From NCBI GenBank assembly GCA_947649935.1, contig CANSTR010000006.1, positions 4,494 to 68,493 on the forward strand: 64,000 nucleotides of DNA, written 5' to 3'. Of the stretch, positions 38,415 through 45,907 are shown one piece after another. Positions within the stretch are counted from its first letter, which is position 1; the number at the start of each line of letters is the position of its first letter. A model generated the notes under the pieces. The model did not search any database. It saw only the letters and a list, made by a program, of their open reading frames with translations, and was not told the origin of the DNA. Position numbers and translations under genes: made by a program. Source of the stretch: an uncultured Clostridia bacterium. Lineage in GTDB: Bacteria; Bacillota; Clostridia; TANB77; CAG-508.

Positions 38415-38443
38415 TTGATTTTTTCTTTTTTTATCGATATGAT
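38415..38443 (+). promoter_or_regulatory. Candidate sigma-A promoter TTGATT-17-TATGAT for the NRPS operon
   Basis: Hexamers at 38415-38420 and 38438-38443; about 30 nt upstream of the start codon. Confidence 0.4.
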
Positions 38444-38473
38444 GTATACAAATTTATTGAAGAGGAAGTAAAA

Positions 38474-44400: not shown

Positions 44401-45907
44401 CAAAATTACAAAAACAGAAAAACAAACTTATGTCGCACCAAAAAATGACTTCCAAGCTTTACTTTGCGACACTTGGAACCAATTTTTACATACGCAAATT
44501 GGAATTGATGACAATGTTTTTGAATGTGGCGTAGATTCATTAATCGCCATCAAATTTAAAACTGCCTTGTTGTCACATAACATCAATATTCCCTATGCAA
44601 ATTTGTTTAAATACCCAACTGTACGTGCTTTATCAGAAAATACAAAATTGGAAAAATCAACTTCGCGTTTAGACAACTTTGATTACACAAAAATTAATAA
44701 AATCTTGCAAAAAAATAATTTGCAAACCTTGAAAGATGCTAACATTACTCACAATTATAAAAATAATATTTTATTACTTGGCAGCAACGGATTTGTAGGA
44801 AGCCATATTTTATACAATTTCATCAAACAAGACTCTGGAAAAGCCTATTGTATCATTCGAGACAAAAACAACAAATCCGCAAGAAACAGATTAATCGATA
44901 CTTTGCATTTCTATTTTGAAAATGAACTAGATAATTTTATGGATGACAGAATTATCATTTTAAAAGGTGACATTACAAAAGAAAATTTTGGTTTAGAGAA
45001 AGAAATTTTTGATGAGATAACACAAAAAATATCAACTGTTATCAACACTGCCGCTATGGTTAAGCATTATGGAGACATCAAAAAATTTAAAAGTGTGAAT
45101 ATCAAATTGACAGAAAAACTCTGTGAATATTGCAAAATCAACCGCAAAAAACTACTTCACACATCCACTATGAGTGTCTCAGAAAGTTCAAATATCGATG
45201 CCACTTATGTTGCATCCAAAAAATATGAAAATACAGAATTTTCTGAAAGCAATTTGTACATTGGACAAATGTTAGATAATAGTTACACTTCTAGTAAATT
45301 TGAAGCAGAACGAATAATTCTATCCAATATGGTAGATGGATTAAATGCAAAAATCATTCGTCTTGGCAACATTACCAATCGCTTTTCTGATGGAACATTT
45401 CAAATCAATCCAGACGAAAATGCCTTTGCCAACCGACTAAAAAGTTTTATTCATTTGAAAAATATACCAGACTATTTACAAGCTTTGCCACTTGAATTTA
45501 CACCAGTTGACCTATGCGCCAAGGCAATTATCTATATTTTGCAAAACAACATAAAAGAATTTTCAGTTTACCATTTATATAACAACCATTCTATTTATTT
45601 AAAGGATTTTGTTGCTATTTTAAATGCAGAAAACATTAAACTAGAATTTATAGAAACTAAAAGATTCAAATCCATGATAAAGAAAATATTAGACAATCCA
45701 GAATCACAAAACGACTTATCTGGAATTATCAATGACTTAAATGAAAATTACGATTTAATTTATGAAAGAGATGTTAACTTAAACTCTAGCTTAACACAAT
45801 TTTTCTTGCAACGTTTAGGATTTGAATGGCCAAAACTAGATGAAAACTATATTCGAAAATATATTAATTATATGAAAAAAATAAATTTTTTTAAGGAGGA
45901 TATATAA
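38474..45907 (+). CDS. Bimodular nonribosomal peptide synthetase C-A-T-C-A-T-R (terminal thioester reductase)
   Basis: 2477 aa. C1 HHLISDAW (38864-38881). A1 core YTSGSTGNPKG (about 40284-40316). T1 GGDSLS (Ser codon 41453-41455). C2 MHHSISDGTS (from 41993). A2 YTSGSTGTPKG (about 43387-43420). T2 CGVDSL (Ser codon 44537-44539). R domain GSNGFVGSH (about 44780-44806) and YTSSK (45284-45298). Confidence 0.92.
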   Translation: MEKLYDLSAPQKSILLTEQFYSGTSINNIGGGIIVHEALDFELFKQAILNFVKYNDSFRIRLKQTASGVKQYFEEFSEFNMDIVDLKSEEEVADLDEKILYQPTNIFEERLFEFTIFRFPNNHGGYVIKMHHLISDAWTSGLLCRKIMHEYANLLNRENDGCNKKFSYTNYLESEENYFASQKFEKDKSYWMEKFKDIPSAVSIPSTKDSSNDFSCEGNRSSFVISQKDMEQITKYCTEHSVSVFNFFMAVLSIYVSKINDVSDFVIGTPILNRSNIAEKNTAGMFINIAPLRICLENQNLFTDFISSIAKDSMGLLRHQKYPYQNILEDLRKQDASIPNLYNLVLSYQITRSNNECNIPYDTRWSFNGCTADDVDIHLFDMDERGILNVAYDYKTSKYNYIDIENMHKRLMHIMKQVLKKEDIEISNIEIVTPEEKHKILVEFNNTAVDYPKDKTVVDLFEEQVKKTPDNIAVVFEDQQLTYRELNEKANQLAWYLLENQISNNSIIGILLNRSIEMIISVLAILKSGNCYIPIDPNYPTERIHYMLKNSHAKLLLSTSKVMQNFKLDTNYTNVNLTYFNSFSKNTNNPQVSIKEDDLAYIIYTSGSTGNPKGVMLTHRGISNLINDCNKTVEYLSHPKYDSIVSVTTISFDIWFFETIISLQKGLKLVIANEDEQMIPRLLDELIKKENIKILQTTPSRMKLLLENISDKSNLKNLKYIILAGEQFPISLAQELKTLGNITLYNGYGPSETTIFSTLTNVTNVKKMTIGKPLNNTQIYILDKYKNLCPIGVTGEICISGNGVGKGYLNNALLTDKNFIANPFDNTSLLYQTGDLGSFNIDGTINCLGRIDHQVKLRGLRIELEEIESSILHIDNIKECIVTKKKSIDYNEFLCCYYTASQNIKNSTIQSILQKKLPYYMVPQFFVKLDTMPHTPNGKVDRKKLPMPTFTNSDIDIKKPRNEFDELLVNLLSTLLHIDKISINQSFFELGGDSLSAINLCIKIYHKLKIELSVKDIFEHPILSDLSDYISNYETTQTTIEKAKIQDFYDASSAQKRIYYASKAAGEESTLYNCPGALVFGTIPDIEKLKTCFETLFERHESLRTYFEIKNDAIVQKIAPNINFKLEIQNSISSNTDYLLKQFIKPFNLAKAPLFRATLVVQNNEKATLLLDMHHSISDGTSISILLEELSKLYNGGALENNSITYTDFSEWEKIHFASSEFKESEKFWLDQFCDEIPILHMPTTFERPVTQSFEGNSYHFEIDKKLKNKISKLSKDLGITPYMFLLASYYVLLYKYTNQEDIIIGTPITGRNLPELSNVFGMFVNSLPLRANIKSSVSFKTFLNNIKKTCLDAFDHQDYPFDFLVNKLNLQKNTNRSPLFDTMFIYQNMGAPTLNFKDISTTYVAAKNNISKFDFSLEIIPNKETLSLRFEYCTKLFSEEFIQNLANRYLKILTVATNDITTKIANIEMMSEEEKNQILCDFNDTKLPYDSPKNLQTIFEENVEKNPDKTAIIFENEKMSYQELNQKVNQLANYLLSNHIKPNDIIGIMLPRSLETIICLLGVLKAGAGYMLIDTSLPKDRIEFMLKNAKSSLFITESKQKKVDFENTVFINKENLNYYNVQNPDINSKITDTLSVVYTSGSTGTPKGIQLHRQGMLNLMESYKKILHTDTYENFLSTCAISFDMFAVEVFSSFYNGKTLILANDEETKIPTMMSNLIKQYQVEFMLITPSKLQLLLMQKNTAECLSHLKSIQLGGETLTQQLYQEILKYTSANIYNQYGPSEITACCCLKKVDTTINIGSPLCNTQIYLLDKDLNLCPIGIEGEICIAGDGVSNGYINQPELSKKSFIKNPFGNGMLYQSGDIGKWTKNGEIEYIGRKDFQIKIRGLRVELSEIENKFLEIPEIDNSAVIYKQDENDNYLVGFFTSTADIDIADIRQELTKSLPLYMIPKYIIKLDQMPITANGKINKKDLDKHKITKTEKQTYVAPKNDFQALLCDTWNQFLHTQIGIDDNVFECGVDSLIAIKFKTALLSHNINIPYANLFKYPTVRALSENTKLEKSTSRLDNFDYTKINKILQKNNLQTLKDANITHNYKNNILLLGSNGFVGSHILYNFIKQDSGKAYCIIRDKNNKSARNRLIDTLHFYFENELDNFMDDRIIILKGDITKENFGLEKEIFDEITQKISTVINTAAMVKHYGDIKKFKSVNIKLTEKLCEYCKINRKKLLHTSTMSVSESSNIDATYVASKKYENTEFSESNLYIGQMLDNSYTSSKFEAERIILSNMVDGLNAKIIRLGNITNRFSDGTFQINPDENAFANRLKSFIHLKNIPDYLQALPLEFTPVDLCAKAIIYILQNNIKEFSVYHLYNNHSIYLKDFVAILNAENIKLEFIETKRFKSMIKKILDNPESQNDLSGIINDLNENYDLIYERDVNLNSSLTQFFLQRLGFEWPKLDENYIRKYINYMKKINFFKEDI

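Follow-up and report, generated by a model that had tools for sequence, protein, structure and literature searches.

A dimodular, reductase-terminated peptide synthetase and a sensor kinase probably form an operon beside a divergent htrA gene in an uncultured Clostridia bacterium

We analysed a 64-kb stretch of DNA from an uncultured Clostridia bacterium (the window; contig CANSTR010000006.1, positions 4,494 to 68,493) and found that its nonribosomal peptide synthetase (NRPS) gene, which encodes condensation (C), adenylation (A), carrier (T) and reductase (R) domains in the order C-A-T-C-A-T-R, is joined stop-to-start to the gene of a sensor histidine kinase and lies divergent from an htrA gene. 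We consider it probable that the NRPS and kinase genes make up a functional bicistronic operon with htrA divergent from it, and that this arrangement is one copy of a widespread cassette of low-GC Clostridia. An earlier sequence-only reading had described the NRPS as a single-gene assembly line, a label that misleads, since the gene is part of an HtrA/NRPS/kinase cassette that in relatives can also include a REC-HD-GYP regulator.

The NRPS gene occupies 38474..45907 on the plus strand as one open reading frame (ORF) of 2477 amino acids, with GAGG placed 8 nt before its ATG start codon. The start previously given at 38415 is out of frame with this ORF and coincides instead with the -35-like hexamer of a promoter-like site. 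Pfam detected two Condensation, two AMP-binding, two AMP-binding_C and two PP-binding domains and one NAD_binding_4 domain, with E-values ranging from 1e-185 to 1e-15, and these hits, together with NCBIfam scans and the motif positions, confirmed the C-A-T-C-A-T-R order in a single polypeptide that the sequence-only reading had proposed. The motifs it had named were likewise all found, namely both HHxxxD condensation sites, the adenylation cores, the carrier serines, and the GxxGxxG and YxxxK of the reductase. The N-terminal condensation domain C1, in the starter position (38474..39796, approximate), carries HHLISD at residues 131-136, and is followed by A1 (39854..41308, approximate), with TSGSTGxPK at residue 605 and FDIWFFE at residue 652, and by the carrier domain T1 (41372..41563), with Ser994 in GGDS (991-994). 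The second module comprises C2 (41609..42913; HHSISD, residues 1174-1179), A2 (42947..44401, approximate; TSGSTGxPK at residue 1640, FDMFAVE at residue 1684) and T2 (44456..44647, approximate; Ser2022 in GVDS, 2019-2022). NxYGPSE, YxxGD, GRxDxQxKxRGxR and PxxxGK, corresponding to the A5, A7, A8 and A10 cores, are seen in each module. The protein ends in a thioester reductase of the short-chain dehydrogenase/reductase type (44768..45904), with GSNGFVG at residues 2103-2109 and YTSSK at residues 2271-2275.

The NRPS gene is under purifying selection. Ka/Ks values calculated against two relatives were 0.05-0.21 for C1, C2, A2, R, the kinase and HtrA; the length of the NRPS is the same as in relatives, and a 98% identical copy with unchanged neighbours occurs in two further samples. 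That the gene is a non-functional remnant was thus ruled out by its intact motifs, relative-like length and Ka/Ks well below 1.

The kinase gene (45908..47722, plus strand) encodes 604 amino acids with a seven-transmembrane (7TM) HisKA_7TM sensor followed by PAS, HisKA and HATPase domains, as annotated by Pfam. Its ATG at 45908 abuts the NRPS stop codon (45905-45907), giving a 0-nt junction, and GGAGG stands 8 nt ahead of it within the 3' end of the NRPS gene. His375, the N box and the G boxes of the kinase are invariant in 5 homologues. There is no terminator between the two genes, and an intrinsic-terminator-like hairpin with a T run, readable on both strands, lies directly after the kinase gene (47724-47746, plus strand). 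Upstream of the NRPS, a consensus scan identified the promoter-like site TTGATT-17-TATGAT (38415-38443, plus strand), of which TTGAT and TAT..A are invariant in six relatives, and which would serve the NRPS-kinase operon. Neither the window nor six relatives contained riboswitches or other RNA elements near the cassette. On the minus strand, divergent from the NRPS across a shared intergenic region of 140 nt, lies the gene of a membrane-anchored serine protease of HtrA type (37200..38333; Trypsin_2, 4.5e-34; PDZ_2, 2e-15), which has a transmembrane segment at residues 13-31, one PDZ domain, and intact catalytic motifs around His120, Asp151 and Ser232. This HtrA is 74-81% identical in close relatives and adjacent to the NRPS in every one of them.

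To place the arrangement among relatives, we used a kinase-anchored sample of 80 metagenome loci, many of them labelled human gut, with kinase homologues 42-64% identical to that of the window; features were scored by tblastn, and each denominator is the number of loci with enough sequence around the kinase for the feature to be scored. An R domain lay directly 5' of the kinase in 64/65 loci and a complete C-A-T-C-A-T-R NRPS in 53/54. The distance from NRPS stop to kinase start was 0 nt in 21 of the 54 loci and mostly within -8 to +19 nt. An RpfG-type REC-HD-GYP gene was present in 55/58 loci, of which 47 had it adjacent, and a divergent HtrA gene was found upstream in 31/48. The 36 loci from which both genes could be extracted at full length group, by kinase, into 24 clusters at 90% identity or 17 clusters at 70%. 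The layout recurred in samples drawn by other routes: NRPS relatives at 71, 51 and 45% identity had the kinase directly after the NRPS and HtrA upstream in all three cases, with REC-HD-GYP after the kinase in two; four metagenome-assembled genomes labelled uncultured Clostridium or Clostridia, 65-74% identical, carried HtrA, NRPS and kinase; and two more homologues of the kinase sensor, from an independent protein search with 2286 matches, showed the same order, one of them in a Hadza gut assembly. Trimodular relatives of about 3510 amino acids also have the same kinase directly after their stop codon, with the regulator close by. The relatives' regulator keeps its HD, HHE and GYP motifs, has no DNA-binding domain, and belongs to the RpfG family (bioRxiv 10.1101/2021.11.05.467447). 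The linkage of this NRPS to a kinase, an RpfG-type regulator and HtrA is not described in the searchable literature, outside which the two primary papers on the family lie.

The window is a reduced variant of this cassette with the regulator not at the locus. The regulator is also missing at the locus in the 98% identical strain and in the 74% relatives, and it is present in the 71% relative. Other relatives differ by additions or breaks. In two relatives (L020, 3816-5534; L063, 523-2229), a divergent gene upstream of the NRPS encodes a stand-alone AMP-binding enzyme of about 570 amino acids, similar to fatty-acyl-AMP/CoA ligases, which may supply an acyl starter there; the window has no such gene. 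L020 further contains a skipping-rope RNA (RF02924, 49 bits) near the cassette at 158-228. In L108, two radical SAM/SPASM genes, a MazG gene and a NUDIX gene lie between the kinase and REC-HD-GYP genes (11857-17010). In the 65% relative L008 (9761-19272), frameshifts split both the NRPS (2022 + 546 amino acids) and the kinase (392 + 236 amino acids), which reflects either decay of the cassette or an assembly error.

The individual domains were then compared with solved structures. C2 aligned with TycC6 at 307 bits and LgrA at 227 bits and, judged by these scores, is clearly LCL-like, that is, a standard LCL-type domain. C1 shares 24% identity with C2. It begins at residue 1, has no carrier domain ahead of it in the protein, and keeps an intact HHLISD motif; some family members have NHxxxD in C1 in place of HHxxxD. 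Comparison with solved C domains gave C1 no clear subtype placement. The proposal of a starter C domain at the N terminus therefore stands as regards position and HHxxxD motif and fails as regards nearness in sequence to characterised starter domains. As C1 is not close to any structurally characterised lipo-initiation starter domain, the case for acylation is made by its position and its intact His motif.

Ten-residue specificity codes, extracted by motif anchors, were DIFQIAGIFK for A1 and DMVLQGQACK for A2. The extraction is validated by relatives, which show canonical codes at the same alignment columns; by the Stachelhaus table these are Gly, Thr, Pro, Val and Ile codes. On sequence grounds the A1 pocket would be mostly hydrophobic and that of A2 wide, with two Gln residues, and we claim no specific substrate for either. 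The codes common in the family matched nothing in the searchable literature, nor in a code survey's supplement. The reductase had its two best matches among solved reductases in Mru_0351 PCP-R (6VTJ, 211 bits) and AusA R (4F6C, 126 bits). Both alignments span the whole domain, with GxxGxxG, STxSV and YxxSK all aligned, and YTSSK lines up with the catalytic Tyr and Lys of the two structures, so that the assignment of the C-terminal domain as a thioester reductase holds (NAD_binding_4, 8e-42). A match of 70 bits was also obtained to MxaA, a reductase that forms alcohols. The nearest solved reductase thus comes from a rumen archaeon, Methanobrevibacter ruminantium, ahead of that of staphylococcal AusA, a ranking that hints that such NRPSs have moved between methanogens and gut Clostridia.

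From this domain set we infer the following route. A phosphopantetheinyl transferase (PPTase) encoded elsewhere would phosphopantetheinylate the carriers, after which A1 would load an amino acid onto T1 and the N-terminal C domain would most likely N-acylate this first residue from acyl-coenzyme A or an acyl carrier protein. A2 would load the second residue, the LCL-type C2 would make the peptide bond, and the terminal reductase would use NAD(P)H to release the thioester as an (N-acyl) dipeptide aldehyde. Were C1 bypassed, the free dipeptide aldehyde would be expected to cyclise to a dihydropyrazinone or pyrazinone. Reductive release and a dipeptide-aldehyde architecture, as originally predicted, are in keeping with the domains; N-acylation and cyclisation, both of which had been suggested, are mutually exclusive alternatives for any one molecule, because a blocked amine cannot cyclise. 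All of these product classes have been reported: pyrazinones and dipeptide aldehydes, with or without an N-acyl group, are described as products of C-A-T-C-A-T-R NRPSs of gut bacteria (PMC10979478, PMC8518294, PMC8210680). Examples are N-octanoyl-Met-Phe-H, which a Clostridium cluster makes, and the N-acyl Leu-Glu aldehyde ruminopeptin (PMC8518294). The kinase would be made together with the synthetase, and compound production would thereby be linked to a membrane-sensed signal and to turnover of cyclic di-GMP (c-di-GMP); since the kinase is made with the synthetase and REC-HD-GYP is paired with it in most relatives, the cassette probably couples production to a sensed signal and c-di-GMP.

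By architecture and presumed habitat, the NRPS likely belongs to the kind of dipeptide-aldehyde NRPS found in gut Clostridia. Guo et al. 2017 (Cell) reportedly described such enzymes, for example MIBiG BGC0001686, and Schneider and Balskus 2018 are said to have described the ruminopeptin pathway of Ruminococcus bromii. The earlier match to this family is plausible in its architecture, its uncultured Clostridium relatives and the gut metagenomes from which many relatives come. The nearest named genomes are metagenome-assembled genomes of 'uncultured Clostridium sp./Clostridia' at 65-74% identity, and human gut metagenomes are the source of many homologues of the cassette. The gut-Clostridia enzymes share the dimodular C-A-T-C-A-T-R organisation with terminal reductase (PMC10979478) and a Clostridia-type host, and the class predicted here fits N-octanoyl-Met-Phe-H and N-acyl Leu-Glu aldehydes (PMC8518294); unlike them, the NRPS of the window has non-canonical specificity codes.

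Four further systems invite comparison. The aureusimine synthetase AusA/PznA of Staphylococcus is not known to be paired with a kinase. Its A-T-C-A-T-R model (NF047350) aligns with residues 375-2469 of the window NRPS at 1551 bits, below the cutoff of 2500, and the window NRPS has an extra N-terminal C domain; these two differences ruled it out as an AusA equivalog. The two would share reductive release of a dipeptide aldehyde (PMC8210680), and 4F6C is the second-best solved relative of the reductase; they differ in that AusA is paired with the PPTase AusB (PMC12153313). Mru_0351 (6VTJ/6VTZ) offers the closest solved reductase, matching over the whole R domain, and also comes from a gut (rumen) anaerobe; it is an archaeal NRPS (PMC8024701), and the comparison covers its T-R part alone. 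The Xanthomonas rpfF-rpfC-rpfG genes follow the order of synthase, membrane sensor kinase and REC-HD-GYP that the full cassette has in relatives, and in the window, too, the kinase is next to the synthase. Here, however, the synthase is an NRPS rather than a crotonase, the kinase is HisKA_7TM-PAS rather than hybrid, and the regulator is absent from the window. In the Corallococcus corA-corB coralinone locus (PMC10979478), a dipeptide-derived pyrazinone synthetase stands beside a PDZ protease of the DegP/HtrA family. CorA differs in being an NRPS/polyketide synthase with a thioesterase and without an R domain, from another phylum, and CorB in carrying two PDZ domains behind a signal peptide, where HtrA of the window has one transmembrane anchor and one PDZ domain.

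Comparison with close relatives revealed that the NRPS gene is mosaic. A segment of the A1 core (40137..41215, plus strand) has been replaced relative to the 71-74% identical relatives: blastn homology with L001, L004, L005, L007 and L008 is interrupted within about 40002-41222, at limits that vary with the relative, and protein identity to these relatives is 36-46% in the A1 core as against 80-93% in C2, T2 and R. Within the sample, the closest match to this core (65%) comes from a relative that is more distant. Such a pattern indicates that the A1 core is swapped between close relatives, presumably by recombination or subdomain swap. Relatives with the A2 code DMVLQGGACK, one position off DMVLQGQACK, have A1 codes that are Gly-like or other. 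At the strain level, the NRPS genes of the window and of the 98% identical strain L105 differ at 116 nucleotides, 105 of them in 41.25-43.0 kb (T1-C2), where Ks is 0.20 compared with 0-0.02 elsewhere; this clustering points to a recent recombination tract inside the gene. Around the cassette, gdpP, which encodes a c-di-AMP (cyclic di-AMP) phosphodiesterase 89% identical between the two loci, lies 3' of the kinase in the window (47789-50427) and upstream of htrA in L005 (5857-7893), and in L004, L007 and L009 the cassette is close to trmFO, which is 8.7 kb off in the window. The neighbourhood of the cassette has undergone repeated rearrangement.

Beyond the cassette, an IbrA/IbrB-like set on the minus strand (34886-37115) lies between htrA and an OmpR-type two-component system, and consists of a ParB_N gene (34886-35419), an unannotated ORF of 144 amino acids, and a PAPS_reduct + DUF3440 protein divided between two overlapping ORFs (36147-37115 and 35825-36280); as the same split occurs in a 98% identical strain (L106), it represents either a frameshift or a genuinely split gene. 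Also on the minus strand, 24856-31187 holds an FtsX permease, an ABC ATPase, a histidine kinase and an OmpR-type regulator (24856-29385), then CmpB-like and VanY D-Ala-D-Ala carboxypeptidase genes, a putative module of the peptide-antibiotic-sensing type. At 18985-23359 (minus strand), the gene of a cohesin-domain protein (290 amino acids) is located directly 3' of that of a 1161-amino-acid transglutaminase-like protein with a C-terminal dockerin, which by their domains would form a cellulosome-style pair on a non-glycosidase. The only tRNA gene of the window, tRNA-Lys CTT (8828-8903), is accompanied by an accessory stretch (8828-15779) with five GNAT acetyltransferase genes, DUF402, DUF3800, a GmrSD-type restriction enzyme (14604-15779), and a YhcG/DUF1016 nuclease split over ORFs 10983-11507 and 11625-12029; the stretch is reminiscent of an integration hotspot or a defence islet. 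At 50408-54581, ORF starts overlap: RecQ, read from TTG at 50408, overlaps the start of gdpP, and 52338-53414 (minus strand) overlaps 52980-54581 (plus strand, Gate domain). Gene callers gave RecQ 599 and GdpP 678 amino acids in L105, so the true starts are probably internal to the window ORFs.

Several observations weigh against this reading of the operon and its product. Tblastn detected no REC-HD-GYP gene anywhere in the window, and, with relatedness controlled, divergence of the kinase sensor did not co-vary with the A-domain codes (partial Mantel r = -0.02, p = 0.6). Pfam searches of non-shadow ORFs of at least 120 amino acids and six-frame motif scans revealed no PPTase, MbtH or thioesterase within the 64 kb, in agreement with the sequence-only reading, which had noted the lack of PPTase, MbtH and type II thioesterase. 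C1 is not nearer to characterised starter domains (RzmA 69, SrfAA 51, CDA-C1 47 bits) than to elongation domains, its best solved match being the elongation domain TycC6 (93 bits); the A1 and A2 codes are non-canonical and had no match in the searchable literature or in the code-survey supplement; and two-electron and four-electron reduction cannot be told apart from sequence (PMC8024701). A product other than the N-acyl aldehyde, either a pyrazinone formed when C1 is bypassed or an alcohol formed by a second reduction, is a real possibility, although we lean against it. C-A-T-C-A-T-R enzymes have been described as canonical pyrazinone synthetases (PMC10979478), and C1 is highly divergent and reads NHxxxD in some family members, yet here it retains HHLISD and evolves at a Ka/Ks of 0.10-0.16. 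For the alcohol, the kinship with MxaA is to be set against AusA, the closest characterised reductase, which stops at the aldehyde (PMC8210680). The origin of the block is a separate matter. The NRPS gene was correctly seen as AT-rich, its GC content of 0.296 being that of the lowest 7.4-kb stretch (minimum elsewhere 0.321, mean 0.339), and as the only long plus-strand unit, which holds from about 8.9 to 50.4 kb. As grounds for the acquisition that had been proposed, however, a low GC content and the opposite strand are weak, and we regard a recently acquired island as unlikely. Such an island would account for the low GC, for gdpP lying on one side of the cassette in the window and on the other in L005, and for the sharp limits of nucleotide homology with close relatives, which begins at the 3' end of htrA (37198-37222) and ends at the 3' end of the kinase gene (47703-47717), beyond which the flanks differ. 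Relatives, however, show the same deficit of 2-5 GC points against their own flanks, suggesting that low GC is a property of the genes, and many hold the cassette at a syntenic site beside tex. In addition, there are no flanking direct or inverted repeats of at least 11 nt, no integrase or transposase genes beside the cassette, and no close kinase homologue on plasmids. GC and flanks give no clear evidence of recent acquisition; local rearrangement and intragenic recombination are what the comparisons document.

The cassette layout suggests that the product may have a role in signalling or in protease control for the producer. A signal-receptor circuit, in which the product or its pyrazinone would be sensed by the co-translated 7TM-PAS kinase and relayed through an RpfG-type REC-HD-GYP protein to c-di-GMP, would refine the operon reading rather than exclude it, with the regulator lost or moved in this genome; we put it forward tentatively, as somewhat improbable. 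It would explain why the NRPS-kinase linkage is near-obligate, very tight and extends to trimodular NRPSs. The regulator, moreover, has an enzymatic HD-GYP output with intact motifs and, being without a DNA-binding domain, probably does not control transcription of the cluster; regulators of the RpfG family put c-di-GMP under two-component control (bioRxiv 10.1101/2021.11.05.467447), and pyrazinones serve as signals in other bacteria (PMC10979478). Against the circuit stands the failure of sensor divergence to follow the A-domain codes; neither the window nor the 74% relatives have the regulator, while NRPS and kinase are under purifying selection; and the gene linkage would be just as expected if the cue sensed by the kinase came from outside. 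Protease control, in which the peptide aldehyde would act mainly on the adjacent extracytoplasmic HtrA or similar bacterial S1 proteases, or HtrA would counter the product, seems to us decidedly unlikely. An HtrA with intact triad and membrane anchor, divergent beside the NRPS over so short an intergenic region, would be consistent with it, as would the way in which HtrA tracks NRPS identity across relatives and its presence in 31/48 loci. There is a precedent in corB, the DegP/DegQ-like gene beside the coralinone synthetase, which antagonises the effect of the product (PMC10979478). Ruminopeptin-type aldehydes are said to inhibit a bacterial S1 protease (Schneider and Balskus, 2018). However, HtrA is not at the upstream position in 17/48 loci, and in Firmicutes htrA genes often lie beside two-component systems for unrelated reasons. 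If protease control were correct, inhibition of host cathepsins would be secondary.

Host cathepsins are known to be inhibited by the peptide aldehydes that gut Clostridia make. The present comparison indicates that the synthetase is almost never alone, as a kinase of one clade is joined to it stop-to-start across at least 24 distinct lineages. With the swapped A1 core and the strain-level T1-C2 tract, nature offers instances of the exchange of domains that the engineering of NRPSs tries to imitate. In the most far-reaching reading, which we would call conceivable but unlikely, the R-terminated NRPSs of gut Clostridia would be the signal synthases of an unrecognised NRPS-based system of cell-cell or self-signalling that acts through the HisKA_7TM-PAS kinase, HD-GYP and c-di-GMP, with HtrA as modulator or target. 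If this were true, inhibition of host proteases would be a side effect, and the window would hold a variant whose regulator is no longer coupled to the locus. Collectively, what these compounds do natively, whether in signalling or in the control of an envelope protease, becomes a hypothesis that can be tested, with the cassette naming the proteins to assay.

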